A program made the translations under genes and the position numbers. DNA of 64,000 bases from Candidatus Omnitrophota bacterium (GTDB taxonomy: Bacteria; Omnitrophota; Gorgyraeia; Gygaellales; Profunditerraquicolaceae). The notes beneath the pieces were generated by a model, which was not told the DNA's origin, did not search any database, and saw only the letters and a list, made by a program, of their open reading frames with translations. The stretch is taken from the NCBI GenBank assembly GCA_026387335.1, contig JAPLLX010000001.1, forward strand, positions 170,620-234,619, written 5' to 3'. Positions 1 to 44,145 of the stretch are shown in pieces. The first letter of the stretch is position 1. The number at the start of each line of letters is the position of its first letter.

Positions 1-678
1 GAAGATTTTCGCGGTAAGGACATTCTTGAATGTGGTTGCGGCGGAGGGCAACACACTTTTTTTATTGCCCCTTACGCCAGGAATATTACCGCTGTGGATT
101 TGAATACGGTTAATATAGCGAGAAAAAGGAACGCAGGCTTAGCTAATGTGAAATTCGTAGAAGCCGATATAATGAGTATGGATTTAGGAAGAACCTTTGA
201 TATTGTTTTTTCAATCGGCGTTGTACATCATACTGATAATCCCGACAAGGCTTTTGAAAACCTTAAAAAACACTTACGGCCTGGAGGGAAATTACTCTTA
301 TGGGTATATTCAGAAGAAGGAAATTTTCTGATTAAGTATATAGTGGAACCAATGAGGAAGTTGTTACTCCGCCGTATGAATAGAAATGCTCTTTTTCAAT
401 GTGCTAAGGTCTTGACATTTTTAATGTATCTTCCGGTATATTCGATATATCTGCTACCGTTAAAATTTTTTCCGTATTATGAATATTTCAAAAATTTTCG
501 AAAGCTTACGTTTTATAGGAATTGTCTTAATGTATTTGATAAATTGAACGCGCCGCAAGTCACTTTTATTAATAGAAAAAGGGTTGAGGGCTGGTTTAAT
601 TCGCGAGACTTTAAAAACACGCAGATAAGTAGTTATCGTGGCGTCAGTTGGCGGGCGTCAGGGATAAAAAATGGCTAA
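1..678 (+). CDS. class I SAM-dependent methyltransferase (5' end outside window)
   Basis: Frame 1 is open from nt 1 (EDFRGKDILECGCGGGQ... = motif I G-x-G-x-G). It continues into the listed ORF 94..678. Stop at 676-678. Confidence 0.7.
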   Translation, partial: EDFRGKDILECGCGGGQHTFFIAPYARNITAVDLNTVNIARKRNAGLANVKFVEADIMSMDLGRTFDIVFSIGVVHHTDNPDKAFENLKKHLRPGGKLLLWVYSEEGNFLIKYIVEPMRKLLLRRMNRNALFQCAKVLTFLMYLPVYSIYLLPLKFFPYYEYFKNFRKLTFYRNCLNVFDKLNAPQVTFINRKRVEGWFNSRDFKNTQISSYRGVSWRASGIKNG

Positions 679-2074
679 AATTTTACTTTTAAACCCTAAT
701 TATTATTACGATATTTTTAACCAGTCAAAAGTTCGCTCTGCGGTTTCTCGGGGCACTACTCCGTTGGGGTTGGTATGCATAGCCGCATCGTTAATAAAGG
801 ATGGCCATGGGGTCAGAATTTTAGACCTTAATCTTACGGATAATCCGGATGAATTTCTTCAGAGAGCGATTAAGGATGATAAACCTGATTTTGTGGGGAT
901 TACTTCTACGACGCCGTTAATTAAAAAAGCGTATCATTTATCCTCTTTGATAAAAGCGATAGACAAAAGTATTACCATTATTGTTGGCGGTGCGCATCCC
1001 TCCGCGCTCCCGGAAGACGTTTTGAAAGAAAGTAGTATTGATTGTGTTGTGCAAGGGGAAGGAGATTTCATATTTAGCTTAATTGTAAAAGAAGGCCTTT
1101 CTCGGAGCATCCCTAATATATTTTATAAAAATAATGGGATGATTGTTTCCTCCTGCATTCATAACGATATTATCAAAGATTTGGATCGGTTACCTTTTCC
1201 TGCCTATGAGCTATTGAATATAAATAGATACTATCAGCCGCGTATTTCAAGCCGAAGAGCGCCGCTTGGGTATCTTGAGACTTCCCGAGGCTGTTACGGT
1301 AAATGTATATTCTGCAATAAAAATATACACGGTTATCAAATGAGGATGAAATCTGTTTCGCGCGTGGTAGACGAAATGGACAGAATGCTTGGGCTCGGCT
1401 TTAGGGAAATACAAATTATTGATGACCTTTTTACCGCAGATATGAATAGGGCATATGCTATTTGCGAGGAGATAATGCGGCGCAATCTAAAATTCCCATG
1501 GTATCCGCGAGGAGGAATTCGGGTGGATAGGGTTAATGAAAAGCTGTTGAAAATTATGAAGCGCGCTGGTTGTTACCGTATTCCTTTTGGTATAGAGTCA
1601 GGTAGCCAGAGAATCATTGATATTGTCGGTAAGAAGATTTCCCTTGAGCAAGCTCAAAGAGCGGTTACTTTGGCTAAGAAAGCCGGGCTTGAAACAGAAT
1701 GTTACTTTATGTTGGGGCTTCCCGGCGAATGCGAAGATGACTTGAAGAAGACTATAGAGTTTTCCGTTAAGCTTAATCCGGACTACGTAAAATTTGCCAT
1801 AACAATACCATTACCCGGAACTCGGATGTTTGATGATATGTCTAGCCGTGGGCAAATCAAGACAAAGGATTGGGATAAGTACAATTTCTCGGTTTCTCCG
1901 AAAGAGCTTTATGAACACGATAGTCTTTCTTGGAAAACAATAGATAAATACTATAATATCTCGCACCGAAAATTTTACTTTCGTCTAAGCTATTTATTAA
2001 AAATGTTTTTCAAAACATTAGCAAATGGTACGCTGTTATCACATGCGAGGGCATTTTTACAGACAGATTGGTAA
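671..2074 (+). CDS. cobalamin (B12)-binding radical SAM protein (class B radical SAM, putative methylase)
   Basis: N-terminal B12-binding-like region followed by CxxxCxxC (SRGCYGKCIFC). ATG at 671 overlaps the upstream stop by 8 nt. Confidence 0.75.
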   Translation: MAKILLLNPNYYYDIFNQSKVRSAVSRGTTPLGLVCIAASLIKDGHGVRILDLNLTDNPDEFLQRAIKDDKPDFVGITSTTPLIKKAYHLSSLIKAIDKSITIIVGGAHPSALPEDVLKESSIDCVVQGEGDFIFSLIVKEGLSRSIPNIFYKNNGMIVSSCIHNDIIKDLDRLPFPAYELLNINRYYQPRISSRRAPLGYLETSRGCYGKCIFCNKNIHGYQMRMKSVSRVVDEMDRMLGLGFREIQIIDDLFTADMNRAYAICEEIMRRNLKFPWYPRGGIRVDRVNEKLLKIMKRAGCYRIPFGIESGSQRIIDIVGKKISLEQAQRAVTLAKKAGLETECYFMLGLPGECEDDLKKTIEFSVKLNPDYVKFAITIPLPGTRMFDDMSSRGQIKTKDWDKYNFSVSPKELYEHDSLSWKTIDKYYNISHRKFYFRLSYLLKMFFKTLANGTLLSHARAFLQTDW

Positions 2075-2100
2075 ATAATCCTAACTTAAGGAGGTTTTTG

Positions 2101-2973: not shown

Positions 2974-3023
2974 CAGAAGTAGCATACCTAAAAGCAGGTA
3001 ATAATAAGAGAAGGGGAGGGGTA

Positions 3024-4076: not shown

Positions 4077-4120
4077 TTTTCCCCCGAAAAAGTGTATACG
4101 GCGAAGAGCTAAGGGAAGGC

Positions 4121-4912
4121 ATGACGCAAAAGGAAGTGTTTGAAAAGATATATAGTGAAGAACGACTTGATCATTTCAGTTTTCATGATAGCAAGGATCC
4201 ACTTACCAGATACCTTCGCGATAGAAGATTGAATATTGCTTTAAGTGAGATTAAAAAAAATGCCAAGGATTTCAATTGCGATTGGAAAATTCTAACGGTC
4301 TGTGATGGCGTGGGAGGAGAAGGGACTTTTTTTGCGAATTTAGGGTTCAATTCAGTAACTGTTTCTGACATTTCTCAAAATGCTTTGAATTATTGCGTAA
4401 AACGCGACCCTCGATTAAAGACTTTATTATTAAATGCAGAAGATACGGAATTAACCGAAGCAACATTTGATTTAGTTGTAGTGCAAGATGGGCTTCACCA
4501 TTTAAAAAGGCCATTTTTAGGATATACGGAGATGCTCAGGATCGCAAGGAAAGCGGTCATTGTTATTGAACCGCATACTGGTGTTGTAGCTCGAATTTTT
4601 GGGACGGTTTGGGAGAAGCATTATGGTGAAGTGAATTACGTTTTTCGTTGGAACTACTTTATTTTGAGGCAAATCACAAATAGTTATTTGTTAAAATCGG
4701 ATTTTTCTATCAAATTTATTCGCCTATGGGATCATAACTTAGTTATGGGAAAAATAGCGAAAATTTTTGGAGGAGGGAAAGCGGGGTTATTTATTGTTAA
4801 GATCGTTTATTCTATTTTAAATTCTATTTTCTCAGGGTTTGGCAATATGATGATAGGGATTGTAATCAAAGAAAACAGTGTGATAAAAGAGATTATTAAT
4901 GAAAATAGATAA
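4121..4912 (+). CDS. class I SAM-dependent methyltransferase
   Basis: DGVGGEGTFFANLGF (motif I). ATG 4121 is preceded by AGGGAAGG. The upstream extension to 3959 overlaps the preceding gene and was rejected. Confidence 0.65.
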   Translation: MTQKEVFEKIYSEERLDHFSFHDSKDPLTRYLRDRRLNIALSEIKKNAKDFNCDWKILTVCDGVGGEGTFFANLGFNSVTVSDISQNALNYCVKRDPRLKTLLLNAEDTELTEATFDLVVVQDGLHHLKRPFLGYTEMLRIARKAVIVIEPHTGVVARIFGTVWEKHYGEVNYVFRWNYFILRQITNSYLLKSDFSIKFIRLWDHNLVMGKIAKIFGGGKAGLFIVKIVYSILNSIFSGFGNMMIGIVIKENSVIKEIINENR

Positions 4913-6359
4913 AATTTTGCTAATTGTGCCTCCGGCATTAACTTTTAAAGTTTATCGGGATATAAGCCCTATGCCGCCAATGGGGCTTGGTTATCTTGCT
5001 TCGGTAATAGAAAATATGGGGATAGAAGTAAGGATCTTGGATTGTTTAATATCGGATTGGAATAAAGAAGAAGCTGTTAATGGGGATTTGATTCAGGTAG
5101 GTTTATCGGAGAAAGAAATAGCTGAGCGAATTTTAGATTTTAATCCAGATTTGATCGGATTAAACTGTCAATTTTCCAGGCAGCATAGAACGTATAGTAA
5201 AGTATTCTCTTTAATAAAAAAAATTAGCCCTAAATGCGTAATCGTCGCGGGAGGAGCGCATACAACGGTATGCCCGAAAGAGGTACTAAGCGAACAGGAT
5301 TGTGATTATGTAATTATTGGAGAAGCCGAGAATTCTTTTAAGGAGTTAATAGAGTACTTAAAATTAGATAAGGATATAGGCACGATTGATGGCTTGGGAT
5401 GGAAACAAGATAGAAAACTAAATATTAACCTAAAGAATAAATGGATTTCTGATCTGGACACCTTACCTTTTCCGGCGTATCATCTCATGGATTTAGAAAA
5501 ATATTTTAAGCTTGAATTATCCCATGGGTTCCGTCATAGAGAAAAATTCAGCCCTATAATTACATCCAGAGGCTGTATTGCCAAATGCACATTTTGCAGC
5601 GCAAATAAAGTTTGGGGTAATAAATACAGGACCAGGTCAATAGATAACGTTATTAAAGAGATGAGGTTATTGAAAGATAAGTACGGAATCCAGGAGTTAA
5701 TGTTTGAGGACGATAATGTTACAGCCGACCCTAAAAGAGCAAAAGAACTATTTTCCAGAATGGTTGAGGAAGAACTAGATTTTATTTGGGATACTCCCAA
5801 TGGTGTAGGGATATGGTCAATGGATGAAGAGATGTTGGATTTAATGAAACAATCGGGCTGTGTTAACGTTAATTTCCCGGTTGAAAGCGGTTCTCAGAGA
5901 GTCTTAACCGAGGTAATTAGGAAACCATTGAAACTTACTAAGGTCAGGAAATTAACTGACTATTGCAGGAAAATAAAGCTAGGTTACGGGATGTTCTTTG
6001 TTGTCGGGCTACCGGGAGAAACCAAAAAAGATATTTGGCGTTCATTTCGGTTTGCTGTTTCTTGTAAAGTTCGTGCGCCGTTTTTTTCCGTTGCAACTCC
6101 TTATCCGGGCACAGCCCTCTTTGAACAATGCAAAAACGATTCGCTTTTTAGCAGAGAATTTTCATTTGATGATCTTTTTATAAGGAGTTATTTAATTAAG
6201 ACAAAAGAGTGGGACGGGGATGAATTAAAAAAAATATTACGAAAGGGGTTATTTTACTTAAAAATAAGTAAATTAATTTATGATCCAATTGGATTTTTAA
6301 AATTAGCTTTTAAAAAGCTTAAAAGAATTACTAAAACATATTTTTTAAAAACGACTTAA
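4899..6359 (+). CDS. cobalamin-binding radical SAM protein (second paralog)
   Basis: SRGCIAKCTFCS CxxxCxxC motif. Architecture is similar to 671..2074. Confidence 0.75.
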   Translation: MKIDKILLIVPPALTFKVYRDISPMPPMGLGYLASVIENMGIEVRILDCLISDWNKEEAVNGDLIQVGLSEKEIAERILDFNPDLIGLNCQFSRQHRTYSKVFSLIKKISPKCVIVAGGAHTTVCPKEVLSEQDCDYVIIGEAENSFKELIEYLKLDKDIGTIDGLGWKQDRKLNINLKNKWISDLDTLPFPAYHLMDLEKYFKLELSHGFRHREKFSPIITSRGCIAKCTFCSANKVWGNKYRTRSIDNVIKEMRLLKDKYGIQELMFEDDNVTADPKRAKELFSRMVEEELDFIWDTPNGVGIWSMDEEMLDLMKQSGCVNVNFPVESGSQRVLTEVIRKPLKLTKVRKLTDYCRKIKLGYGMFFVVGLPGETKKDIWRSFRFAVSCKVRAPFFSVATPYPGTALFEQCKNDSLFSREFSFDDLFIRSYLIKTKEWDGDELKKILRKGLFYLKISKLIYDPIGFLKLAFKKLKRITKTYFLKTT

Positions 6360-6361
6360 TA

Positions 6362-7594: not shown

Positions 7595-7708
7595 AATTTT
7601 ATTAAGGAGAAGTCGTTGCGCTACAGGCCTTATCCGTTTTTCTGTCCTGCGCTGCCTGTTCGATAAGCTACGTAAGGCAGAACAAATATCCTCGTTAAGC
7701 TTAATAAG

Positions 7709-8503
7709 ATGAATTGTAATTATCCTAAGAACATATCTTCAATAATGATTTTGGGGACACGGGTTGATGCTGTCCAAATTCCATATATCATTCAATATAT
7801 GGAAGACTGTATCGCTAAAAATATTCATCATAATTATATTATTGTCGCTAATGTCGATACTATAATGCAAAGTAAGCATAATCCCAAAATACAGGAGGCG
7901 GTCAATGCGAGCAGCTTATCAATTCCGGATGGGTTTCCTTTACTAATTATGCAGAGATTACATGGTAATCCACTAAAAAAAAGGGCGTACGGCCCGGATT
8001 TAATGAATGGGTTTCTGAAAATAACTGGAGAAAAAAAATATTCGCATTTCTTCTATGGCGCCACTGAGGACACGCTGGATAATTTAACTAAAAAATTGAA
8101 GGTTTTATTTCCTGGAATAAGGATAGCGGGCGCGTATTCGCCGCCTTTTAGACCACTTACTTTAGATGAGGATGCGAAGATCGTAGAGATGATTAATAAG
8201 GCTGCTCCCAGCGTGTTATGGGTGGGGATAGGTTGTCCTAAACAAGAGCTGTGGATGTATGAACACAGGGAACAACTGAGCGTTCCTGTTATGCTTGGAG
8301 TAGGCGCAGCTTTTGATTTTTTGGCAGGAGTTAAGCCGCAAGCTCCGCGTTGGATAAGGGATAATGGTTTTGAGTGGTTTTTTAGGCTTATTACGGAACC
8401 TAAACGTTTATGGCGCAGGTATTTAATGAATTACCCGCTCTTTGTTTATCATGTGTTAGTAGAATTAGTCTCCAAGCCTATAAAATCATTATTAAATAAG
8501 TAA
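7709..8503 (+). CDS. WecB/TagA/CpsF family glycosyltransferase (GT26)
   Basis: N-terminal ILGTRVDAV and overall WecG/TagA-like sequence. Confidence 0.75.
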   Translation: MNCNYPKNISSIMILGTRVDAVQIPYIIQYMEDCIAKNIHHNYIIVANVDTIMQSKHNPKIQEAVNASSLSIPDGFPLLIMQRLHGNPLKKRAYGPDLMNGFLKITGEKKYSHFFYGATEDTLDNLTKKLKVLFPGIRIAGAYSPPFRPLTLDEDAKIVEMINKAAPSVLWVGIGCPKQELWMYEHREQLSVPVMLGVGAAFDFLAGVKPQAPRWIRDNGFEWFFRLITEPKRLWRRYLMNYPLFVYHVLVELVSKPIKSLLNK

Positions 8504-8524
8504 AATTGTGATAAAATAAAGGTT

Positions 8525-9919
8525 ATGCATAAACTAAACAAGCGGGTTCGTATTGCTTATTTTTTTGTAGATATCGCGTTTATAATCATTTCATTTTATG
8601 AGGTATTCAAGCTTAACTTTGGTTTAATTCAATTTAATCCGGAGGATATCAAGTTATATCTGTCAGTTTACTTCTTTTGGGGCGTTGTTCTGGTTTTTTT
8701 ATTACATAACGCTTATCTTCACCATACCAATCGTTATCTAAGTGTCTCAGGAGAATGGTTGAAGGTAGGTAGATGTGTTTTATTGGCTTCTATTTTAACC
8801 GCATTGTTTATCTTTGTCCTTAAGTTAGATATTTTCTCACGCGCGGTTTTTATAGAATCAAGCTTTGCGTTATTATTAAGCCTTTCTGCTTGGAGAACGA
8901 TAAAACGGCTCTGTGTCCGTTATTTAATCCGAAAGGGATATGCTAATTATAATATTTTGATAATAGGCGCCGGAAATGCGGGTTTAGCGCTTGCGGATGA
9001 AACTAAAGCCTTTCCTTACTTAGGGATAAAGGCAGTCGGATTTCTGGATGATGTAAGGGTGGGTGAAAGAAACGGAATTAAGATTTTAGGCAAAATTAAC
9101 GATATTGAACAGGTTGTGAAAAATTATTTTATTGATGAAATTTACGTTACTATTCCTTCTGAGCGTAGAATTTCCGGAGAGATAATCCAAAAAGGTACAA
9201 AATTAGGCAAAACGGTGAGGGTTGCTGCCGAGCATTTTGGTCTACCATACAGCCAAGTAAGGCTAAATTATATCGGTGCTATCCCTTTATTGACTTATTT
9301 TGAGGAAAGTGGATACAGGACAAGAAACATGGTTAAGAGATTGTTGGATATTTTTATCTCCGTTTCAATTTTGGTATTATTTCTGCCTTTATTTGTATTA
9401 ATTGCCTGTTTAATTAAAATAGAAAGCTACGGACCAGTATTTTATATCTCAAAACGAAGTGGAAGAAAAGGGGTAATTTTTGATTTTTATAAGTTCCGTT
9501 CCATGATTAAGGGAGCGGATAGTCATAAGGAATCCTTAAAGAGTAAATCTGAAGTAGAGGGACCGATTTTTAAAATCCGTAACGACCCTCGTTTGACTAA
9601 AGCGGGTAGATTTTTACGTAAATACAGCTTAGATGAATTGCCCCAGTTAATAAATGTTTTAAAAGGCGACATGAGTTTGGTTGGTCCCCGTCCTTTTCCC
9701 GTTGAAGAAAGCAATAATATAGAATATAAGCATATACCGCGATTGAATATCCGGCCGGGGATTACAGGTTTAGCGCAAATAAAAGGCAGGTCGGATTTAA
9801 AATTCAGCCAGTGGATGCGTTGGGATATTTGGTATGTTAAGAATTGGTCTTTAGGTTTAGACATAAAGATACTTTTTTGGACCATCCCGGTAGTCTTTAA
9901 GGGGAAGGGAGCGTATTAA
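8525..9919 (+). CDS. polyprenyl-phosphate hexose-1-phosphate transferase (WbaP/exopolysaccharide sugar transferase family)
   Basis: N-terminal TM helices and a C-terminal catalytic domain carrying the signature DELPQLINVLKGDMSLVGPRP. Confidence 0.85.
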   Translation: MHKLNKRVRIAYFFVDIAFIIISFYEVFKLNFGLIQFNPEDIKLYLSVYFFWGVVLVFLLHNAYLHHTNRYLSVSGEWLKVGRCVLLASILTALFIFVLKLDIFSRAVFIESSFALLLSLSAWRTIKRLCVRYLIRKGYANYNILIIGAGNAGLALADETKAFPYLGIKAVGFLDDVRVGERNGIKILGKINDIEQVVKNYFIDEIYVTIPSERRISGEIIQKGTKLGKTVRVAAEHFGLPYSQVRLNYIGAIPLLTYFEESGYRTRNMVKRLLDIFISVSILVLFLPLFVLIACLIKIESYGPVFYISKRSGRKGVIFDFYKFRSMIKGADSHKESLKSKSEVEGPIFKIRNDPRLTKAGRFLRKYSLDELPQLINVLKGDMSLVGPRPFPVEESNNIEYKHIPRLNIRPGITGLAQIKGRSDLKFSQWMRWDIWYVKNWSLGLDIKILFWTIPVVFKGKGAY

Positions 9920-11113
9920 TTGAAAGATGAATTCTATAATTTCTTCAAGTTTATTAGCGAGTACGCGTTATATGGTTTGTTATTTTTTTTGTCAATTTCA
10001 AACGCTTTGGTTGAGACTTTTGTAGGTTTGGCAGTTTTTGGTTTTGTCGGACGCAAAGCAATAAGGCCGGACTTTAAGTATCTTAAGTCCTTACCGAATT
10101 TATTTCTTCTACTGTTTTTATTTTTTAGCGCGCTTTCTTTGTTTAATAGCGGAGCGTATCTTAAAATAAGCCTGAACGCTTTACTTGGAAAGTGGATGCA
10201 ATATCTCGGAATTTGTATCATTATCCAAGATGGCATATATGACCAAAAAATAATTAGGCGTGGGGTGTTTATCTTTTTGCTTGGTGCCGCCTTAGTAGTT
10301 CTTTCTGGGTTAAGCCAGTATTTTTTTAACATTGAATTCTTGCGAAATAGAAGTATCGCAGTTTTAAGCAACGGCCTGCATGCCGCGACATCTTCTTTTA
10401 GCCACTACAATGCTTTTGGCGGGTATTTGGTAGTTGTTCTATCTCTTGTCTCCGCTTTATTGTTAGCGAATAATTATTCTCGCCTTAAAACTAACAGTTT
10501 ATCAGCTTTAGCCATCTTATCAACCACGGCAATTATTTTGACTTTTTCTCGCGGTAGCTGGTTAGCTATGTTTATTTCGTTTATTTTTATGACTATTCTT
10601 TCTGAGAGAAATCTTAAGCGGTTAATTCCTGTTTTTCTTGTGATTATTATTTTATTTCTATTCCCCATCTTCCATGAAAGGTTATTTCTTACTTTTAAGG
10701 CCGGCGGTGATAGCGATAGGTTTAGGTATTGGCTGGTAGCATGGAAAATGATTAATGAACATCCATTTTTTGGAATGGGCTTAGGGACGTTTATGGCCAA
10801 TTTCCCAAAATTTCTACCGACTGCAAATATTTCATATGCGCACAATTGTTATTTGCAGATTTGGGCTGAAACAGGTATTTTTGCCTTATTTAGTTTTGGG
10901 GGTTTTATAGTTTCAGTTGTTTATTTTGGTATTAAAAGGTTTATTGATTCCAAGGATTTTGTATTGCTCGGATTATTGTCCGGAGTCGTGGGCTTCTTGT
11001 TACATAGTTTTTTTGAAACGAATTTATATTCTTTACGCCTTGCTATTTTATTCTGGGTTTGGGTTGGCTTGATTATTGTGAGAACGCGAAATGAACAACT
11101 GCCAAAAACATAG
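9920..11113 (+). CDS. O-antigen ligase/Wzy-family membrane protein
   Basis: Polytopic, with the Wzy_C-like motif TFSRGSWLAM. TTG start is adjacent to the upstream stop. Confidence 0.65.
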   Translation: MKDEFYNFFKFISEYALYGLLFFLSISNALVETFVGLAVFGFVGRKAIRPDFKYLKSLPNLFLLLFLFFSALSLFNSGAYLKISLNALLGKWMQYLGICIIIQDGIYDQKIIRRGVFIFLLGAALVVLSGLSQYFFNIEFLRNRSIAVLSNGLHAATSSFSHYNAFGGYLVVVLSLVSALLLANNYSRLKTNSLSALAILSTTAIILTFSRGSWLAMFISFIFMTILSERNLKRLIPVFLVIIILFLFPIFHERLFLTFKAGGDSDRFRYWLVAWKMINEHPFFGMGLGTFMANFPKFLPTANISYAHNCYLQIWAETGIFALFSFGGFIVSVVYFGIKRFIDSKDFVLLGLLSGVVGFLLHSFFETNLYSLRLAILFWVWVGLIIVRTRNEQLPKT

Positions 11114-12401
11114 TTTAGGTATTAAGAGGTATTTTTATCAGCTGCTTTTTAGGTACCTGTCGGTATTTATCCGTCCTGATAATCCGGTAATTGAAATAAA
11201 CCCGGAATCATTCCCGGTAAGCGCTTATTTTAAGAATTCAAAACAGATTTCTTCGGATCAAGATTTGGGGCAATTATTAAATAAGACCCCCGAATATTTG
11301 ATTCTAAATGGGACCGTCCATTACGAAAGGGAGATTTTGTCCTATTTTCGTAAATTAAAAAGTTCTCTGAGCCCTAAAACTAGAGTAATTATTTTGTATT
11401 ATAGTAGTTTGTGGAAACCGCTAGCAAGGCTTGCTTCTTTTTTGGGGATACGTTCCAGGACGCCTGAACAAAATTGGGTTGACCACGATGATATCTTAAA
11501 TATTTTGTCGTTAGCTGATTTTGAGCCGGTACTTATTGATAGAAAGATTATCCTCCCTTTCTATATTCCCATATTAAGCAATTTAATTAATCGTTATTTA
11601 GCCCCGCTTCCATTAATTCGTTCTTTTTGCCTTGTAAATATACTTGTGGCTAGGCCGCTTATAAGAAGTAGAAGAAATGATCTATCTGTATCAGTCATTG
11701 TTCCCGCCAAGAATGAAGCTGGGAACATTGAGAATATAGTCAAAAGGTTGCCAAAGATGGGTTCGGCAGATGAAGTAGTTTTTGTTGAGGGACATTCTAA
11801 AGATAACACCTGGCAGGAAATTAAAAGGGTGGAAGAGGCATATGGTAAGGTTTTAAACATAAAATGCGTTAAGCAGGATGGGAAGGGTAAGGCCGATGCC
11901 GTAAGAAAGGGCTTTGAATGCGCCTCAAAGGATATCTTTATGATTTTAGACGCTGATTTATCTGTCGCTCCCGAAGCTCTCGAGGATTTTTATAAAGCCA
12001 TGTGTGAAGATAAAGCTGAGTTCTTAAACGGAAGCAGGCTGGTTTATCCTCACGATGGCAAGGCTATGCGATTTTGCAATATGGTTGGCAATAAATTCTT
12101 TGCGGCAGTTTTTTCTTTTCTTGTTGGACAGAGGTTTAAGGATACATTATGCGGTACAAAGGCTATCTCCGGAGAAAATTACAGGAAAATCGCCTTAAAT
12201 AGAAGTTTTTTTGGCGAATTTGACCCGTTTGGTGATTTTGATCTGATTTTAGGCGCAACGCGGCTTTGCCTTAAAATCCGGGAGATACCGGTGAGGTATT
12301 ATGAAAGGACCTACGGAAGTACTAATATAAACCGCTGGAGACACGGGTTTATTCTTTTGAAGATGGCTTTATTTTCGGCGAGGAAATTAAAGTTTATTTA
12401 A
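11091..12401 (+). CDS. glycosyltransferase family 2 with N-terminal extension
   Basis: SVSVIVPAKNEAGNIENIV ... ILDADLS ... GSRLVYP. Confidence 0.7.
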   Translation: MNNCQKHSLGIKRYFYQLLFRYLSVFIRPDNPVIEINPESFPVSAYFKNSKQISSDQDLGQLLNKTPEYLILNGTVHYEREILSYFRKLKSSLSPKTRVIILYYSSLWKPLARLASFLGIRSRTPEQNWVDHDDILNILSLADFEPVLIDRKIILPFYIPILSNLINRYLAPLPLIRSFCLVNILVARPLIRSRRNDLSVSVIVPAKNEAGNIENIVKRLPKMGSADEVVFVEGHSKDNTWQEIKRVEEAYGKVLNIKCVKQDGKGKADAVRKGFECASKDIFMILDADLSVAPEALEDFYKAMCEDKAEFLNGSRLVYPHDGKAMRFCNMVGNKFFAAVFSFLVGQRFKDTLCGTKAISGENYRKIALNRSFFGEFDPFGDFDLILGATRLCLKIREIPVRYYERTYGSTNINRWRHGFILLKMALFSARKLKFI

Positions 12402-12454
12402 ACAGTAGGTCATTATTAGCTAGTATATGAATGTCTAAGAAAAATATTTAGCCC

Positions 12455-14149: not shown

Positions 14150-14649
14150 ACGATAATTACTCAACCGTAAGAATGAGGAGATATTTTGTTGATATTTTAC
14201 ATAAGAAAATGTCGGAATATAGAGATATTTGGGTTGTAACCGGTGACCTGGGATATAAAATGTGGGATGAAATCAGGAGAGATTATCCGGGCCGGTTTAT
14301 AAACGTGGGAGCTGCTGAACAGGCTATGATAGGGGTTGGTATAGGGTTGGCCTTAGAAGGCAAGATTCCCTTTGTTTATTCAATATCCCCATTTCTTTTA
14401 TATAGGCCTTTTGAGACTATTAGAAATTACATAAACGAGGAAAAGATTCCGGTGAAATTAGTTGGTTCGGGAAGAGATAAGGATTATATTCATGACGGTT
14501 TCTCTCACTGGGCGCAGGAGGATAGAGATATAATGAAGATTTTGAATAATATAAACGCCAGATGGCCGGAAACTAATGAAGATTTACCCGAGATAATAAA
14601 TGAAATGATTAGAAGAAATTCCCCGTATTATTTAAACCTTAAGAAATAG
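14146..14649 (+). CDS. transketolase C-terminal subunit, pyrimidine-binding domain only
   Basis: Pyr-domain motifs (VGAAEQAMIGVGIGLALEGKIPFVYS). GTGA overlap with the upstream gene. It lacks the usual C-terminal domain. Confidence 0.65.
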   Translation: MNDNYSTVRMRRYFVDILHKKMSEYRDIWVVTGDLGYKMWDEIRRDYPGRFINVGAAEQAMIGVGIGLALEGKIPFVYSISPFLLYRPFETIRNYINEEKIPVKLVGSGRDKDYIHDGFSHWAQEDRDIMKILNNINARWPETNEDLPEIINEMIRRNSPYYLNLKK

Positions 14650-14665
14650 TTATTTAGGAGAAAAT

Positions 14666-15601
14666 ATGAAGAAAATTTCAGCAGTAGTAGCCTGTTATAA
14701 TGACGAAAGAGCCATTCCGCATATGCATAAGAGATTGACCGATGTTTTTAGGAAAATAGGGGTTAATTATGAAATAATATTTGTTAATGACGGTAGTCCT
14801 GATAATACGGAAGTTTTATTGCGTGATCTTGTAAGAAGCGACCCGCACACAATCGGAGTAAACCATTCCCGTAATTTTAATTCTCAGATGGCTTTTACAA
14901 GCGGTATGGATATCGCTAATGGTGATGCGGTAGTTCTGTTAGATGGGGACTTGCAGGATCCGCCGGAGATTATTGAGCAATTTTATAACAAGTGGCTGGA
15001 GGGTTACGATATTGTATACGGAGTGAGGGTGAAACGAGAGGCTCCCTTATTTATGCAAGTAGCATATAAACTATTTTATTACATTTTTCACAAACTTTCT
15101 TATGTGAAAATACCTCTAAACGTCGGAGACTTCTCACTCATGGATAAAAAGGTGATTGAGGTAATGAAATTATTTCCCGAGAGAGACAGGTTTCTTAGAG
15201 GCCTAAGGGCATGGACGGGTTTCCGAAATACAGGCATCCCGTATATCAGGCCGGAGAGGATGTTCGGTAGGACAACGAATAATATTTTCCGGAATTTAAA
15301 CTGGGCGACAAAAGGAATTTTCTCTTTTTCATACGTACCACTTGAATTAATGACATTTTTCTCTTTCTTTGTGTTTATTCTTGCCTTATCCGGAATAATT
15401 TTTCAGATTATCGCAAGAATTCTAGAGCCGAATATTCCGCATGGAATTACAACCGTATTAGTTGTCGTGTTATTTATTGGCGCTATTCAGTTACTGGGGA
15501 TAAGTGTATTAGGTCAATATATCGGTAGGATATTCGAAGAAGTGAAACAGAGGCCTAAGTATATTGTTAAGAGTGTATTCCGTAATGAAGGAAAAGTATG
15601 A
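14666..15601 (+). CDS. GT2 polyprenyl-phosphate glycosyltransferase (GtrB/ArnC/DPM1-like)
   Basis: GT2 core motifs plus two C-terminal TM helices. This is the typical GtrB architecture. Confidence 0.75.
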   Translation: MKKISAVVACYNDERAIPHMHKRLTDVFRKIGVNYEIIFVNDGSPDNTEVLLRDLVRSDPHTIGVNHSRNFNSQMAFTSGMDIANGDAVVLLDGDLQDPPEIIEQFYNKWLEGYDIVYGVRVKREAPLFMQVAYKLFYYIFHKLSYVKIPLNVGDFSLMDKKVIEVMKLFPERDRFLRGLRAWTGFRNTGIPYIRPERMFGRTTNNIFRNLNWATKGIFSFSYVPLELMTFFSFFVFILALSGIIFQIIARILEPNIPHGITTVLVVVLFIGAIQLLGISVLGQYIGRIFEEVKQRPKYIVKSVFRNEGKV

Positions 15602-17679
15602 TTAATCTGATAGTAGTGAATGCAATCGTAATCTTTAGCTCTTGGATAATTGCAAGAAAGTATTTTGGCGTGCGTTTATTTAGTGAATTAATTTTAGTTT
15701 GGTTTATATTGTTCTTTGCTCAAATAGTCTTAGTTGAGATGATATTGGGAATTTTCAATCTGCTCTTTTTTAAGAATGTCTTTTCCGTACACCTGTTAAT
15801 TCTTATATTTATATTGTTGATAAGCCGCAAGAGAAGAATTGCCGAGTTTTTAAAACCTGATTTAGAATTTTTTGTAAATAGCAAATTGCTTTTTTTTGCC
15901 TTCTCTGTATTTGCAGCATTTTTCTTAGTGAGAATAGTTATTAATTTAATGACACCGGCTGTGTTCCCTGACGGATTGCAAATCTATTTATCTTTTCCTG
16001 CAACTTGGATTAAAAGCGGAAATTTGGATAATCCGGTAAATATATTCGGAGCATCGCCTATATTAAACGCAAAATTCTTGCAAACCAGTGCGACTTCTTA
16101 TTATCCTATTAATGGCCAGCTATTCTTTGCCTGGCTTATGTTGCCATTAAGAAGTTCATTCTTAGCAAATATTGGGCAGGCCCCATTTTACATAACAGGT
16201 ATAGCAGTTTTTTATTCAATATTAAGGAAATATGATTTAAATAGAACGATTGCCCTCTTAAGCGGCTTTCTTTGGGCCCTTATCCCTAATATTTTTAAAC
16301 AATTTAGGAATGGCGCTCAAATTGACATCATTTGTTCAGTCTTGGTGCTTTTGTTTTTTTACACAATTTTATTGCTTAAACTGAATTTTACTTTTAAGAA
16401 CGTAATCTTGTTTGGTATATCGGCGGGGCTTTTAATTGGAACTAAGGTTATTAATATTGTATGGTTTGCTGCTTTTCTACCTTTTACCTGTTATGTGTTA
16501 TTTAATGGGATAAAGGAAAACAAGCTTACAATGAGCAAGGTATTAAATTTTACAGGAGTCATTGCTTTAATGGTTATTTTATTCGGTGGTTTCATATATA
16601 TAAAAAATTATATTTTTACTGGTAACCCTCTGTTTCCTGTGAGCTTAAAAGTTTTCGGTGTCACTATCTTTAATGGTTTGCTTGATAACGCCGCATATGG
16701 AATGCAAATTGCCAGCGGAGATAAATTTGATTTAATGAGAATAATTTTTAAAGAAGGTTTAGGTGCGCAATTTTTAGTTTTAGTTTTACCCGGTTTGTTT
16801 CTGCCGGTAGTATTTTTTGCGTATTTAAGAAGAAAGTGCCAGCCTTTTGGAGAGTACGTGCTGATTTTTATCACACCGCTTATAATGTTTTTCTTATATT
16901 ACTTTCTTGTTAATGTGTACGTAGTCAGGTATCTTTTTCCGTTTATAAGTATGGGGTTGATAACTGCCGTTATTTTTATAAGCAGGTTACCTCGCGGAGA
17001 GAGATATTTGACATTGGTTTCATTTATAGCAATTTTTGTTTCAGCTTCCGAATTAGCTCATAGATATGAACTTATTACTTCGCTTTTGCTTTCTTTGATA
17101 TTCTTTATAGCATTAGTAGCATATAAAAAACAATTCATTTCATTTTATAAGAGCAAAGCATTTACTAAGAAGATGATTATTTTATTATCCGTGGTGTTAA
17201 TATTTCTAGGTTACCTAAATGAAAAATATAATAAAGAGGCATATGACCGCTATCCTCTAAGTTTCAGCAAGAAGGAAGCATCGCAGAGAGATATAGCTAG
17301 AGGTTGGAAGGCTCTCAATGACTTAACCGGGCCAGGCGCGCGAGTTGCTTATACCGGCAGGCAGGAGTTTTACCCTTTATTCGGCACGCGGCTTAAGAAT
17401 TATGTAGTCTATGTGTCTATTAATGAAAAAGAAGTTTCTCCTTATAATGAATTTGATGGGTTATTCCGGCAAACCAAGGATTTCCTTGCCTGGAGGATAA
17501 ATTTAAAGAGAGAAAAAATTGAGTATTTATTTATAGCGCATCCATTTTTTAATAGCCGTGAATCGGAAGATCCTGCTAAATTTCCAGTTGAAGATGAATG
17601 GGCTGTTGCGCATCCCGAAGATTTTAAGCTTTTATACAATAATTCATTAGCTCATATATATAAAATTTTAATTAAATAA
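15598..17679 (+). CDS. large polytopic membrane protein, GT-C-like partner of the GtrB-like GT2
   Basis: 693 aa with many TM helices followed by a soluble C-terminal domain. ATGA overlap with the upstream GtrB-like gene. Confidence 0.55.
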   Translation: MINLIVVNAIVIFSSWIIARKYFGVRLFSELILVWFILFFAQIVLVEMILGIFNLLFFKNVFSVHLLILIFILLISRKRRIAEFLKPDLEFFVNSKLLFFAFSVFAAFFLVRIVINLMTPAVFPDGLQIYLSFPATWIKSGNLDNPVNIFGASPILNAKFLQTSATSYYPINGQLFFAWLMLPLRSSFLANIGQAPFYITGIAVFYSILRKYDLNRTIALLSGFLWALIPNIFKQFRNGAQIDIICSVLVLLFFYTILLLKLNFTFKNVILFGISAGLLIGTKVINIVWFAAFLPFTCYVLFNGIKENKLTMSKVLNFTGVIALMVILFGGFIYIKNYIFTGNPLFPVSLKVFGVTIFNGLLDNAAYGMQIASGDKFDLMRIIFKEGLGAQFLVLVLPGLFLPVVFFAYLRRKCQPFGEYVLIFITPLIMFFLYYFLVNVYVVRYLFPFISMGLITAVIFISRLPRGERYLTLVSFIAIFVSASELAHRYELITSLLLSLIFFIALVAYKKQFISFYKSKAFTKKMIILLSVVLIFLGYLNEKYNKEAYDRYPLSFSKKEASQRDIARGWKALNDLTGPGARVAYTGRQEFYPLFGTRLKNYVVYVSINEKEVSPYNEFDGLFRQTKDFLAWRINLKREKIEYLFIAHPFFNSRESEDPAKFPVEDEWAVAHPEDFKLLYNNSLAHIYKILIK

Positions 17680-19076
17680 TGAAAATAGCGCTTGTATATC
17701 CACCGTCCCAGGAATTAAACCTTAAGGGGTATCCTTTAGGGCTGGCATACCTATCGGCCTCTTTAAAAAGAAAACATAAGGTGGATGTATATGATTATAA
17801 TGGCAGGGAGTTTAAGAAGAGCTTGAATTTGTTTTTTAATTCTGTCAGACAATCTAAGCCTGATTTAGTGTCAGTTTCTTTTAATTCCTTTAACCGCTGG
17901 GCTGCGTATAAAATAATTAATAAGGTTAAAAATATCAATAAGGATATTATTGTTGTTTTGGGAGGGGTTCATCCCTCTACAATGTATACCCAGATTTTTC
18001 AAAATTTCTTTGATGATATTGATTTTATTATTCAGTCAGAAGGCGAGAGCTCACTGTATAAGTTATGCAGTGCTTTAGAAACAGGATCAGATTACAAAGA
18101 AATAAGCGGATTAGTTTATAAAGACGGTGACAAAACTTTTAAAGCAAATCCTGTTACCCAGATTGCCGCTAATCTTGATGATTTACCTCTTCCGGATTAT
18201 TCATATGCTTCTCAAAGGATAATGGAGAGCGGGTCCGCGTATCTTATTACTTCCCGGGGATGCCCGGTTAACTGTTCTTTTTGCTCAACTTCTTCTTTTT
18301 GGGGACAGAACGTTAGGATGAATTCTCCGGAAAGAGTGGGAGAGGAAGTGGATTATGTAAAAAGTTTAGGCGCCAAGAGAATCTTTTTTCATGATGATAC
18401 TTTTAATCTCGGGATTGAGAGGACCATTAAGCTGGCCGAGATACTGAAAAATAAGAAAATTGAATATGCTGTTTCTTGCCGGGTAAAGCCCGTGAATGAA
18501 GAAATGGTCGCCAGATTAGTTGAGTCTGGCTGCAGGCATATAACCTGGGGGGTAGAGAGCCTATCCGATAAGATATTGCAGACAATTGATAAGAAGATTA
18601 CTAAAGAAGAAGCGAAGAATGCTTTTGATATCTGCTCTAAATATACTGATAGATTGACTACCAGCGGATTTTTCTGTGTCGGAATCCCGGGTGAAGCTGA
18701 AGAAACAATCAATGAAACAGTTGATTATTTGAATAAATTTATCAAGTCTACCCATGGGCCGGGAGCGTCTATGCTCTATATTTTGCCTGGGACAAAGATT
18801 TACAGGGAGTTGGTTAAGTCTGGGGAGTTTGACGAAAGCATATGGATAAAGACCAATTCAGTTTATTATTATACTGAAGAACATAGTATGAAGGTTTTAA
18901 ATAGATGGAGGAAGAGAGTCAATTCTAGTGGGATAAGGTTGCCATCCAACCTTAAATATTTTTGGGATTATGCCTTGGTTAATAAGGAAGATAATGCGGG
19001 CAGGTTAAGAAAAGCGCTTCGTAAGAATGTCAGGAAAATAACCAGATTTATAAATATGCTGCGCAACAGATACTAG
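17679..19076 (+). CDS. cobalamin-binding radical SAM protein (third paralog)
   Basis: TSRGCPVNCSFCS CxxxCxxC motif. N-terminal B12-binding-like region. Confidence 0.75.
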   Translation: MKIALVYPPSQELNLKGYPLGLAYLSASLKRKHKVDVYDYNGREFKKSLNLFFNSVRQSKPDLVSVSFNSFNRWAAYKIINKVKNINKDIIVVLGGVHPSTMYTQIFQNFFDDIDFIIQSEGESSLYKLCSALETGSDYKEISGLVYKDGDKTFKANPVTQIAANLDDLPLPDYSYASQRIMESGSAYLITSRGCPVNCSFCSTSSFWGQNVRMNSPERVGEEVDYVKSLGAKRIFFHDDTFNLGIERTIKLAEILKNKKIEYAVSCRVKPVNEEMVARLVESGCRHITWGVESLSDKILQTIDKKITKEEAKNAFDICSKYTDRLTTSGFFCVGIPGEAEETINETVDYLNKFIKSTHGPGASMLYILPGTKIYRELVKSGEFDESIWIKTNSVYYYTEEHSMKVLNRWRKRVNSSGIRLPSNLKYFWDYALVNKEDNAGRLRKALRKNVRKITRFINMLRNRY

Positions 19077-19104
19077 GCGTTTATAATAGAAAGAAAGGTT
19101 TGGA

Positions 19105-20139
19105 ATGAGAGAAAGTGTGTTAAAATTATTAAGATGTCCGGCCTGCAAAAGCAACTTATTGTCCTTACGCAAAGAAACCGTCAATGAGATTGAGACTAGA
19201 ACCGGCAGGATTGTGTGTAATAATTGCAGCGCAGATTATAAGATTGAAGATGGGATAATTAATTTTCTCCATAATGCCAATGAGGGAGTTTTGCGTGAAA
19301 GAAAGGCTATGGATGACGATGAGTACATTGTTGATGAAAGTGGCATTAAATATAGAATATCAAATGAAACGATAGAAAAGTTTAAAGATAAATTTCTTGC
19401 TTTGCCCGAAGGAGATGGTTCGTATTTCTTCAAGGCTAACGGAAGTTTTCAGACCACTGCCGAAGCATCAGGTAGATTTTATTCCGCATTAGCGGACCTA
19501 AACCTTAGCGGAAAGGAAAGTGTATTAGAGGTAGGCTCATGTTTTTCTTACGCCTCTTTTAATTTTGCTAAAAAAGGATGTAGTGTAGTCGCTACGGATA
19601 TAAGCAACTACTTAAAGGCCTCTAACCTTTTTATAAAGCAGGCGTATTTTGAAAGAATATTTTCGGATATGCACTATATACCATTTATGGATAATTCATT
19701 TGACATTGTGTTTGGTTCAGCGATTCTTCATCACAGTAAAGACTTGAAAAAAGTTTTTAGCGAGATATACAGGGTTTTAAAGCCAGGAGGCAGGCTTTTT
19801 GTGATTAACGAAGCATGTAGAGGGGTTTTAGAAAAAGTCCATCCAGTTTTTAAGAAAATGGAAGAAAAAGGTTTCGCGGACACCTCTTATACTATTCCGC
19901 AATTTATTAAGGGAGCCAAAGCCGGTGGTTTTAGAAAGGTAAAGGCTATATTTTCGTCCTTAGCCGATGATTATATCTTGAGGCGTAAAAACAGGAATCC
20001 TGACGAGCGCACCTTTAAGCTGGAATTAGCTAACTTTTTTAAGAAACACAGAAGATTAGAGCGTTTAGTATCTTTTTTTATGATACTGCCGAGATTATTA
20101 TTCAGGCCGAAAAGCTGGAAGCTTATTTGCTATAAATAA
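19105..20139 (+). CDS. SAM-dependent methyltransferase with N-terminal Trm112-like zinc ribbon
   Basis: CPACKSN ... CNNCSADYKIEDGIINF, then the MTase motif VLEVGSCFSYASFNFAKKGCSVVATDIS. Confidence 0.7.
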   Translation: MRESVLKLLRCPACKSNLLSLRKETVNEIETRTGRIVCNNCSADYKIEDGIINFLHNANEGVLRERKAMDDDEYIVDESGIKYRISNETIEKFKDKFLALPEGDGSYFFKANGSFQTTAEASGRFYSALADLNLSGKESVLEVGSCFSYASFNFAKKGCSVVATDISNYLKASNLFIKQAYFERIFSDMHYIPFMDNSFDIVFGSAILHHSKDLKKVFSEIYRVLKPGGRLFVINEACRGVLEKVHPVFKKMEEKGFADTSYTIPQFIKGAKAGGFRKVKAIFSSLADDYILRRKNRNPDERTFKLELANFFKKHRRLERLVSFFMILPRLLFRPKSWKLICYK

Positions 20140-22187: not shown

Positions 22188-22190
22188 TAT

Positions 22191-24118: not shown

Positions 24119-24121
24119 CAT

Positions 24122-27874: not shown

Positions 27875-27883
27875 GATAAAATA

Positions 27884-31947: not shown

Positions 31948-31951
31948 TCAG

Positions 31952-34646: not shown

Positions 34647-34659
34647 AGGAGTGTGTTAT

Positions 34660-44144: not shown

Positions 44145-44145
44145 A

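Follow-up and report, generated by a model that had tools for sequence, protein, structure and literature searches.

B12-binding-domain radical SAM enzymes beside methyltransferases and membrane-linked glycosyltransferases in a surface-glycan locus of an Omnitrophota bacterium

What do three radical S-adenosylmethionine (SAM) enzymes with B12-binding domains do in a locus where each lies against a methyltransferase gene and close to genes of polytopic membrane proteins? The question is posed by a 64,000-nucleotide stretch of DNA, here called the window, from a Candidatus Omnitrophota metagenome-assembled genome (MAG), whose proteins that match the window exactly include MCX5695221, MCX5695225 and MCX5695236. 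It concerns the B12-dependent radical SAM enzymes, which are among the largest and least characterized of enzyme groups. An original prediction, made from the nucleotide sequence, described the arrangement as a triplicated module within a single glycan operon and expected an extensively C- and O-methylated lipid-linked glycan as its product. The explanation favored here is that bases 1 to ~40.2 kb of the window, with at least 10 kb further upstream, form one lipopolysaccharide (LPS)/O-antigen-type surface-glycan locus, in which the radical SAM enzymes tailor branch sugars in the cytoplasm before GT-C glycosyltransferases attach these to an LPS-like glycan outside the cell. Taken as a whole this explanation is held with confidence a little better than even; the tailoring of glycan sugars within GT2/GT-C cassettes is held more firmly than the whole and C-methylation less firmly.

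Three radical SAM enzymes of separate families

The three enzymes, designated RS_A, RS_B and RS_C, are encoded as follows.

671..2074, + strand: RS_A, B12-binding-domain radical SAM enzyme of 467 residues; PF02310 78.5 bits, PF04055 76.6 bits, CYGKCIFC at residue 208
4899..6359, + strand: RS_B, B12-binding-domain radical SAM enzyme of 486 residues; PF04055 82 bits, PF02310 77 bits, CIAKCTFC at residue 226
17679..19076, + strand: RS_C, B12-binding-domain radical SAM enzyme of 465 residues; PF04055 92.6 bits, PF02310 63.6 bits, CPVNCSFC at residue 195

All three exceed the Pfam gathering cut-offs of 32.1 bits for PF02310 (63.6-78.5 bits) and 29.5 bits for PF04055 (76.6-92.6 bits), and the open reading frames (ORFs) at 671, 4899 and 17679 thus carry both of the domains that had been predicted for them, a Rossmann-type B12-binding domain at the N-terminus and a radical SAM core after it, as in class B enzymes. 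Each protein has a single CxxxCxxC motif, which does not vary in the family alignments of RS_A and of RS_B, and each is as long as its orthologues (467 residues for RS_A, 484-491 for RS_B, 465 for RS_C). The original prediction had named pseudogenes as an outcome that would overturn it; intact motifs and full length relative to orthologues rule out that status for all three genes.

The three enzymes are only 25-31% identical to one another and have much closer orthologues in other lineages, which rules out a recent triplication. Orthologues of RS_A (54-78% identity) occur in Nitrospirae, Planctomycetota, Thermodesulfobacteriota and Omnitrophota, and those of RS_B (59-65% identity) in many bacterial phyla as well as in Methanoperedens/Methanosarcinales archaea. 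RS_C is represented by ~110 cluster representatives at 59-91% identity, nearly all of exactly 465 residues; source names, where given, are in every case Omnitrophota or that of an Omnitrophota candidate species, and the next step in identity is an abrupt one to ~45%. Since each enzyme is closer to orthologues elsewhere than to its companions, three separate families have been gathered in one mosaic locus. The term "triplicated" fails equally for the neighboring genes, in that the methyltransferases align over no more than the SAM-binding fold, at 24-29% identity, and the membrane proteins have no detectable similarity in pairwise BLAST. In all contexts that were retrieved, orthologues of RS_A, RS_B and RS_C are located in glycan clusters and nowhere else.

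Methyltransferases, GT2 proteins and membrane proteins

The genes that accompany the radical SAM enzymes, together with one further GT2/GT-C group of the same locus, are these.

1..678, + strand: MT1, NodS/Methyltransf_11-like class I SAM methyltransferase, its 5' end cut by the window edge; Methyltransf_11 71 bits, NodS 39 bits
2068..2973, + strand: GT2 with two C-terminal transmembrane helices (228-246, 271-289), AglJ/dolichyl-P-hexose transferase/ArnC/PgfS-like; Glycos_transf_2 91 bits
2970..4076, + strand: MEM1, polytopic GT-C-like glycosyltransferase of 368 residues with 8 predicted transmembrane segments; PMT_2 23.1 bits, E 9e-5 (cut-off 26.1)
4121..4912, + strand: MT2, weak class I methyltransferase with a C-terminal transmembrane helix; Methyltransf_11 35.8 bits, Methyltransf_25 32.3 bits
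6362..7594, + strand: MEM2, orphan polytopic membrane protein of 410 residues with 8 predicted transmembrane segments; no family match
14666..15601, + strand: GT2, PgfS/ArnC-like polyprenyl-phosphate sugar synthase with transmembrane helices at 231-249 and 264-282; PgfS 235 bits, ArnC-type 152 bits, both below cut-offs
15598..17679, + strand: MEM3, GT-C glycosyltransferase of 693 residues with at least 12 transmembrane segments and a C-terminal soluble domain; PMT_2-like through homologues and jackhmmer
19105..20139, + strand: MT3, class I methyltransferase of 344 residues with an N-terminal Trm112-type zinc ribbon; Methyltransf_11 69 bits, Trm112p (PF03966) 24.1 bits (cut-off 22)
27191..29562, + strand: two short GT2 genes (27191-27874, 107 bits; 27884-28447, 77 bits) followed by MEM4 (28444-29562; PMT_2 32.8 bits, cut-off 26.1)

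Each radical SAM gene does adjoin a different class I methyltransferase gene, as had been predicted: MT1 overlaps RS_A by 8 nt, MT2 overlaps RS_B by 14 nt, and MT3 begins 28 nt past the end of RS_C, a coincidence with p ~7.5e-4 if the 40 genes of the run described below were in random order. A complete copy of MT1 on an identical contig (locus L001, 9232-10008) has 258 residues and directly follows a gene of the Asn_synthase family. The MT2 ORF is open from 3959 and other gene calls begin at ~4022; among the fetched loci its homologues are copies of this same region (L001, L003, L004) and one 19-bit match (L081), so that MT2 appears on sequence to be lineage-specific. The zinc ribbon that had been noticed on one of the methyltransferases is that of MT3, where Trm112p clears its cut-off and the N-terminal cysteines Cys11/14/38/41 form a CxxC...CxxC pattern; the NCBIfam family Trm112_arch gives 49 bits, under its cut-off of 77.

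The membrane-anchored GT2 genes at 2068-2973 and 14666-15601, which had escaped the original prediction, belong to two of the modules. Their best NCBIfam matches are all polyprenyl-phosphate glycosyltransferase families, below cut-offs, and both lie directly upstream of a GT-C gene, the first of MEM1 and the second of MEM3. A fourth GT2/GT-C pair, at 27191-29562, has no radical SAM enzyme.

MEM1 to MEM4 had been expected to be GT-C-like. All are polytopic (8-12 predicted transmembrane segments) with no detectable mutual similarity in pairwise BLAST apart from one short stretch in MEM1 and MEM2, yet an iterative jackhmmer search run locally from MEM4, labelled "glycosyltransferase family 39" in the source annotation, reaches MEM3 (8e-50) and MEM1 (1e-44). 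MEM3 has no direct Pfam match and its family profile yields noise only against Protein Data Bank sequences; the family comprises 1907 proteins at E <= 1e-3, and among 44 homologues 14 match PMT_2 and 5 match PMT. MEM1, MEM3 and MEM4 are accordingly predicted from sequence to be PMT_2-like GT-C proteins, and for these three the expectation stands. MEM2 falls outside it, having no Pfam or NCBIfam match; jackhmmer from MEM4 does not reach it and comparison with the MEM3 family profile gives a probability below 1%. Its 90% cluster has just 2 members, its single-sequence AlphaFold (AF2) model is unusable at a pLDDT (predicted local distance difference test) of 45, and its one likeness to MEM1 is the FW[AT]DEI[YV]GL stretch after the first transmembrane segment (FWTDEIVG in MEM2; BLAST E 0.019).

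Extent and content of the glycan locus

Forty consecutive + strand genes occupy bases 1-42,076 of the window, with a largest intergenic gap of 114 bp and many stop/start overlaps of 4-14 nt between neighbors. The glycan genes run from base 1 to ~40.2 kb and end before priA; identical contigs from other samples extend the locus at least 10 kb further upstream, where the order is GT2, GT2, epimerase, a 515-residue weak Wzy_C-like protein, GT4, epimerase, a 438-residue GT-C, an AsnB-like amidotransferase and the full 258-residue MT1. The gene content includes a WecG/TagA-type transferase, an initiating phosphoglycosyl transferase (Bac_transf), two Wzy_C proteins, many GT2 genes, two GT9 heptosyltransferases, a carbamoyltransferase, ManC, a GmhB-like HAD protein and a cytidine diphosphate (CDP)-sugar cassette. 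The earlier assignment to a glycan locus is thus well founded, on the phosphoglycosyl transferase, WecG, the Wzy_C pair, the GT2s, the GT9 heptosyltransferases and the nucleotide-sugar cassettes. That this is a single operon, as had also been claimed, is not confirmed: the strand is uniform and the gaps are narrow, but scans for promoters and terminators returned counts at the level of shuffled sequence and are uninformative on operon structure.

Conservation of the gene neighborhoods

The context sample consisted of 38 genome loci around relatives of RS_B, 80 metagenome loci around relatives of RS_A and further individual contexts (L numbers denote loci), with neighboring ORFs classed by phmmer using the window proteins as queries. 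For RS_A, 12 orthologue loci at >=600 bits with at least 3 kb on both sides were counted, and neighbors were taken within 4 kb on the same strand. All 12 have a second B12-binding radical SAM gene, 11 a GT2 orthologue, 10 an MT1 orthologue (250-446 bits, usually directly upstream of RS_A), 10 an AsnB-like gene and 9 a large polytopic membrane protein, to which Pfam gives the name YfhO or PMT_2 in L052-L054. RS_A therefore belongs to a cassette, conserved across phyla, of an AsnB-like amidotransferase, a NodS-like methyltransferase, RS_A itself, a membrane-anchored GT2, a second B12-binding radical SAM enzyme and a large polytopic transferase.

The second radical SAM enzyme of this cassette (L052-L082; e.g. 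L062, ~4000-13000) represents a distinct family of 479-491 residues that scores ~160-210 bits against RS_A and is encoded directly after the GT2. The window lacks this family, and MEM1, MT2 and RS_B occupy the corresponding position. Related loci also encode fusion proteins: GT2 with Radical_SAM (687 residues, L010 3561-5624), methyltransferase with GT2 (483 residues, L053 1034-2485) and NTP_transferase with GT2 (527 residues, L050 4331-5914), which physically tie together sugar activation, sugar transfer and SAM chemistry. Within 129 related loci, a sample chosen for having one B12-binding radical SAM gene, 57 have at least two such genes within <=21 kb and 19 at least three; arrangements with several are not rare, and are common among uncultivated anaerobes.

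RS_C sits in a block found throughout the Omnitrophota, which consists of a GT2, a GT-C of ~690 residues, RS_C and usually a Trm112-methyltransferase. Two Omnitrophota loci (L050 and L051, 61-64% identity) keep the order GT2, ~690-residue MEM3 orthologue, RS_C; in both, the GT2 immediately precedes the MEM3 orthologue. The MEM3 orthologue is directly upstream of RS_C in L050, while in L051 two methyltransferase genes stand between it and RS_C, the one adjacent to RS_C being an orthologue of MT3 (480 bits). Both loci have an orthologue of the window's second Wzy_C protein (20162-21409) downstream of RS_C. The RS_C block of L050 lies 2-8 kb from GT9, DegT, GT2, HAD, MGDG-synthase and priA genes that also close the window locus, and RS_C consequently belongs to a conserved, core-proximal part; in the window, extra cassettes have been inserted between the Wzy_C gene at 20162 and the GT9 gene at 30980. 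The predicted linkage of radical SAM enzyme, methyltransferase and membrane transferase is therefore conserved for RS_A (MT1 10/12, GT2 11/12, membrane protein 9/12) and for RS_C.

The same pairing is not borne out for RS_B. Thirty orthologue loci, with neighbors within 6 kb, have a DegT aminotransferase in 25 cases, a CDP-glucose-4,6-dehydratase-like SDR in 20 and a glucose-1-phosphate cytidylyltransferase-like gene in 14, and a ~150-residue RmlC/FdtA-like cupin is near RS_B in 12 of the 23 loci with enough downstream sequence. RS_B is thus normally part of a nucleoside diphosphate (NDP)-amino-6-deoxyhexose cassette, whereas a methyltransferase was detected in 1/30 loci and a GT-C likewise in 1/30, counts that come from single-sequence phmmer searches and may be underestimates. 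Orthologues of MEM1 are near those of RS_B in the Omnitrophota loci L010, L011 and L033. As a separate observation, RS_B orthologues of bacteria and of ANME-2d/Methanosarcinales (L017, L025, L031, L034) are 61-62% identical and share the same aminotransferase/dehydratase/cytidylyltransferase cassette, which implies cross-domain transfer of a nucleotide-sugar tailoring cassette.

The fluid makeup of these loci raises the alternative that the adjacency of radical SAM, methyltransferase and membrane protein genes is incidental, a matter of packing in a large mosaic glycan locus whose genes serve unrelated steps. The unconserved local partners of RS_B would fit such packing, as would the shuffling of cassettes among relatives (L010, L055) and the toxin-antitoxin genes that have been inserted in the locus. 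Against it, RS_A and RS_C keep their neighbors at 54-78% and 61-64% identity respectively, RS_A even across phyla; the three contacts with methyltransferase genes are improbable by chance (p ~7.5e-4, as above); and the overlaps of 4-14 nt suggest translational coupling. Incidental packing is for these reasons judged very improbable.

A proposed tailoring pathway

The favored reading, that branch sugars are tailored in the cytoplasm and then attached to an LPS-like glycan outside, can be stated as a sequence of steps. In the RS_A and RS_C side-branch cassettes the membrane-anchored GT2 would attach a sugar to polyprenyl phosphate on the cytoplasmic side of the membrane, and the GT-C enzyme would later move the sugar onto the glycan at the outer face, following the logic of GtrB/GtrC, CsbB/YfhO or ArnC/ArnT. 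Transmembrane segments are absent from the radical SAM proteins, from the methyltransferases (a single C-terminal helix of MT2 excepted) and from the AsnB-like enzyme, all of which need SAM or ATP; for this reason their site of action must be the cytoplasm, ahead of flipping. The sugar would accordingly be modified prior to flipping, either as nucleotide sugar or as polyprenyl-phosphate-linked monosaccharide, with the AsnB-like amidotransferase joining in the RS_A set. Because the RS_B family elsewhere belongs to an NDP-amino-6-deoxyhexose cassette, the most probable substrate of RS_B is a nucleotide sugar.

The most likely chemistry would be class-B methyl transfer, in which the [4Fe-4S] cluster cleaves SAM, the resulting 5'-deoxyadenosyl radical abstracts a hydrogen from the sugar, and methylcobalamin then delivers a methyl group to the sugar carbon. 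The class I methyltransferase would add an O- or N-methyl group afterwards, and the outcome would be heavily methylated, hydrophobic branch sugars.

Methylation or other radical chemistry

Whether the three enzymes methylate at all depends on their nearest known relatives. They were compared with the curated NCBIfam equivalogs HpnJ, BchE, Sden_1168, PhpK, QCMT, HpnR, BzaD, AprD4 and the ladderane type. The best match of RS_A is HpnJ (177 bits, cut-off 578), followed by BchE (168 bits); that of RS_B is the Sden_1168 P-methyltransferase family (292 bits, cut-off 575) and that of RS_C is PhpK (153 bits, cut-off 600). AprD4 scores 97-101 bits with RS_A and RS_B and 67 bits with RS_C (cut-off 500), through the radical SAM core only, and the QCMT family TIGR04014 scores 108-129 bits (cut-off 360). 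Membership in the hopanoid, BchE or ladderane families was ruled out by the NCBIfam cut-offs and gene context. Phosphonate P-methylation, to which the Sden_1168 and PhpK matches might point, was ruled out by the sub-cut-off scores and the lack of phosphoenolpyruvate (PEP) mutase genes: no PEP mutase or phosphonopyruvate decarboxylase is present among the scanned window ORFs (nearly all + strand, >=100 residues) or in the contexts of RS_B orthologues, and the thiamine diphosphate (ThDP) enzyme encoded at 24122 has the three domains of the acetolactate-synthase type.

Among solved structures, QCMT/MgmA (9ccb) is the nearest relative of RS_C and second best for RS_A and RS_B. The AF2 model of RS_A (pLDDT 87) superposes over its full length on TsrM, AprD4, MgmA, OxsB, CysS and TokK. 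AprD4 shares the fold and binds no cobalamin; it dehydrates a sugar 1,2-diol and does not methylate, and ArsL homologues likewise have the fold without cobalamin (PMC12931638). The cobalamin-binding and the cobalamin-free members of the fold cannot be told apart by any sequence motif.

These relationships give substance to the possibility that glycan sugars are indeed tailored, but by some radical SAM enzymes that are not methylases and that carry out AprD4-type 1,2-diol dehydration, HpnJ/OxsB-type ring contraction or epimerization, with methyl groups coming only from the class I methyltransferases. AprD4, whose own substrate is an aminoglycoside sugar, is the closest solved structure to RS_A and RS_B in sequence and to the RS_A model in shape, and HpnJ, the best NCBIfam match of RS_A, is a putative ring-contracting enzyme on hopanoid-linked glucosamine (PMC13459092). 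Orthologues of RS_B stand beside an aminotransferase and a 4,6-dehydratase, a layout that is also that of radical deoxygenation routes. DesI/DesII is such a route. The PF02310 scores are nevertheless strong (64-78 bits), and the N-terminal domains of the radical SAM enzymes align with those of the cobalamin enzymes OxsB, TokK, QCMT and BchE, whereas alignments with AprD4 span the radical SAM core only; moreover, the majority of characterized B12-dependent radical SAM enzymes are methylases (PMC12931638). Non-methylating tailoring is on this evidence regarded as possible though unlikely.

A different target is suggested by the family named "lipid biosynthesis B12-binding/radical SAM", which RS_C and RS_A match with 128-144 bits (cut-off 360). 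The radical SAM/methyltransferase pairs could then modify a lipid, be it the polyprenyl carrier, the acyl chains of lipid A or a membrane lipid, as do HpnP/HpnR, the methylases of glycerol dialkyl glycerol tetraethers (GDGT) and the ladderane-type B12-binding radical SAM enzymes. The occurrence of RS_C throughout its phylum, near PriA and core-type genes (GT9 heptosyltransferases, GmhB-like HAD, MGDG-synthase-like GT28), would suit a lipid target. However, the matches are far under the cut-off and no higher than those to unrelated families, no lipid-synthesis genes adjoin, and what is conserved immediately alongside is a GT2 that loads sugar, together with a GT-C, an amidotransferase and enzymes of nucleotide-sugar metabolism; a lipid target is therefore considered improbable.

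A number of observations weigh against cytoplasmic sugar tailoring followed by GT-C transfer, or against methylation as part of it. All three radical SAM enzymes lie far under every curated cut-off. AprD4 (6fd2) is the top sequence match among solved structures for RS_A and RS_B, at ~20% identity (104 bits with the RS_A family profile), and also gives the highest TM-score with the RS_A model, 0.72-0.74. RS_C of L050 has no adjoining Trm112-methyltransferase; the scarcity of methyltransferase and GT-C genes near RS_B orthologues, with its limits noted above, counts here too; and the window RS_B is without its usual DegT and dehydratase neighbors and is flanked by MT2 and MEM2, both of them orphans and lineage-specific. 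No small ORF with four transmembrane segments that would be a GtrA/GtcA-type flippase is present among the 40 back-to-back genes of the window, and a flippase could be encoded elsewhere. All 38 genome matches of RS_B are assemblies that derive from metagenomes, the great majority with the label MAG, and no cultivated carrier is among them, and since all relatives are metagenome-derived there is no glycan structure for comparison. Finally, substrate, use of cobalamin, methyl transfer and the order of the steps are arrived at by deduction, unlike domain content, gene integrity, adjacency, conserved synteny and the GT2 and GT-C types, which are observed.

On balance, the expected C- and O-methylated lipid-linked glycan is upheld in part. 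The surface-glycan locus, the polyprenyl-phosphate-type GT2s and the GT-Cs agree with it, while C-methylation by the RS enzymes, though plausible, is expected from family statistics only, and the best structural match is AprD4, a diol dehydratase that binds no cobalamin.

Other features of the locus and window

The genes for core assembly and polymer ligation or polymerization are as follows.

7709..12401, + strand: core assembly genes, namely WecG/TagA-type transferase, Bac_transf, Wzy_C protein and GT2; Pfam 207, 223, 84 and 83 bits
20162..21409, + strand: second Wzy_C (O-antigen ligase/polymerase family) protein; Pfam Wzy_C 72 bits

The core assembly block is also kept in the related Omnitrophota locus L010, and the two Wzy_C proteins of the window are 28% identical. 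An SDR epimerase/dehydratase gene and a split transketolase follow the block (12455-14649); the N-terminal ThDP part of the latter has 249 residues and the pyrimidine-binding part only 167, and this pair may provide a step that adds a two-carbon branch to a keto-sugar. A complete-looking CDP-sugar cassette at 21384-27194 encodes a glucose-1-phosphate cytidylyltransferase (TIGR02623, 344 bits, above cut-off), a CDP-glucose 4,6-dehydratase-like SDR, a second SDR, the three-domain ThDP enzyme mentioned above (510 bits, just under the cut-off of 538) and the CDP-6-deoxy-4-hexulose 3-dehydrase RfbH (683 bits), a layout like that of the YerE/yersiniose route, which leads to a 3,6-dideoxyhexose with a two-carbon branch.

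Some genes of the locus may be truncated or decaying. The short adjacent GT2 ORFs at 27191-28447 encode 227 and 187 residues, and the second matches the domain, which has 168 positions, over positions 1-112 only; the carbamoyltransferase (29559-31016) has 485 residues against 563-607 in relatives, with an N-terminal domain that is matched in pieces. The glycan locus is interrupted in its middle by an AbiEi/AbiEii type IV toxin-antitoxin pair (31931-33191), with a GT9 gene on one side and ManC on the other, and an NTP_transf_8 nucleotidyltransferase with a small upstream ORF (34651-35641) may be another such pair. Outside the glycan locus are two tandem GalT/HIT-like paralogues downstream of fmt (43119-45147), and a zf-HC2 anti-sigma-like protein followed by a CHAT-protease/TPR protein (49273-52205).

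Novelty and significance

The original prediction did not recognize the arrangement as a characterized pathway, and that judgement holds: no curated family is reached, and full-text literature searches, which are not proof of absence, returned no relevant paper on B12-binding radical SAM enzymes in LPS, capsule, exopolysaccharide, S-layer or YfhO/CsbB contexts. Reviews of 2026 on B12-dependent radical SAM enzymes (PMC12931638) and on radical SAM enzymes in lipid modification (PMC13459092) contain no member that acts on cell-surface glycans or polyprenyl-linked sugars. What would be new is the combination of GtrB/GT-C-type decoration systems with class-B radical SAM sugar tailoring, each of which is already known in kind.

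Three orthologous families are thereby defined: RS_A with amidotransferase, methyltransferase, GT2 and GT-C; RS_C with GT2 and GT-C across the Omnitrophota; and RS_B in an NDP-aminosugar cassette that is common to bacteria and Methanoperedens archaea at ~60% identity, the archaeal case being limited to this nucleotide-sugar cassette. A bolder proposal, advanced as speculation and judged unlikely though possible, is that the cassette of AsnB, NodS-like methyltransferase, B12-binding-domain radical SAM enzyme, membrane-anchored GT2, second B12-binding-domain radical SAM enzyme and YfhO/PMT_2-type GT-C constitutes a new kind of system for decorating glycans outside the cytoplasm. Its radical SAM enzymes would remodel a polyprenyl-phosphate-linked monosaccharide between the GT2 and GT-C steps, by C-methylation or by HpnJ-like ring contraction to a carbocycle, and so give branched or carbocyclic, amidated, methylated LPS sugars in Omnitrophota and many other uncultivated anaerobes.

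The three families are testable targets for new sugar chemistry, and their cassettes could account for methylated or branched sugars of unusual kinds in the cell envelopes of uncultivated anaerobes. In the Omnitrophota, which are ultra-small and attached to hosts, sugars of this sort would matter for the recognition of phage and host. Should the enzymes need cobalamin, the envelope in turn would be dependent on vitamin B12.

Comparison with known systems

Among radical SAM enzymes a functional parallel would be GenK and GenD1 of the gentamicin pathway, B12-dependent enzymes that C-methylate sugars and have class I methyltransferases as pathway partners (PMC4039129, PMC4340712, PMC5819394). Like the role proposed here, theirs is the methylation of unactivated sugar carbons in a pathway shared with class I N-/O-methyltransferases; unlike it, they belong to actinomycete aminoglycoside secondary metabolism and act on free pseudo-oligosaccharides, with no GT2/GT-C or polyprenyl context. 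QCMT/MgmA, at ~450 residues close to the window enzymes in size, is a true sp3 C-methylase that depends on B12, but its substrate is a protein, methyl-coenzyme M reductase, which it methylates on glutamine. AprD4, of apramycin biosynthesis, resembles RS_A and RS_B in its two-domain fold and has a sugar, an aminoglycoside, as substrate. Sden_1168 and PhpK are the best curated matches of RS_B and RS_C, yet score about half of the cut-off or less, and phosphonate genes are lacking in the window and in related loci.

Radical SAM action on a lipid-linked sugar has a precedent in HpnI/HpnK/HpnJ, where a glycosyltransferase puts an aminosugar on a lipid and a neighboring B12-type radical SAM enzyme remodels the lipid-linked sugar (PMC13459092). 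This conversion of hopanoid glucosamine to the cyclitol ether differs from the proposed pathway in that there are no hopanoid genes at the window locus, where the lipid would be polyprenyl phosphate and the sugar would be passed on by a GT-C.

Multi-component transmembrane glycosylation has as its hallmark a GT2 with C-terminal transmembrane helices and, after it, a GT-C; the sugar, once joined to polyprenyl phosphate in the cytoplasm, is flipped and then passed to a polymer on the cell surface (PMC5836110, PMC8035078). GtrA/GtrB/GtrC, CsbB/GtcA/YfhO, ArnC/ArnT and PgfS/PgfM share with the present locus a membrane-anchored GT2 beside a polytopic GT-C, and decorate a pre-made surface polymer. 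In the known systems of GtrB/CsbB/ArnC type, however, the sugar is unmodified or simply modified, whereas the locus described here adds to the GT2/GT-C pair what those systems do not have, namely radical SAM enzymes, methyltransferases and an amidotransferase.

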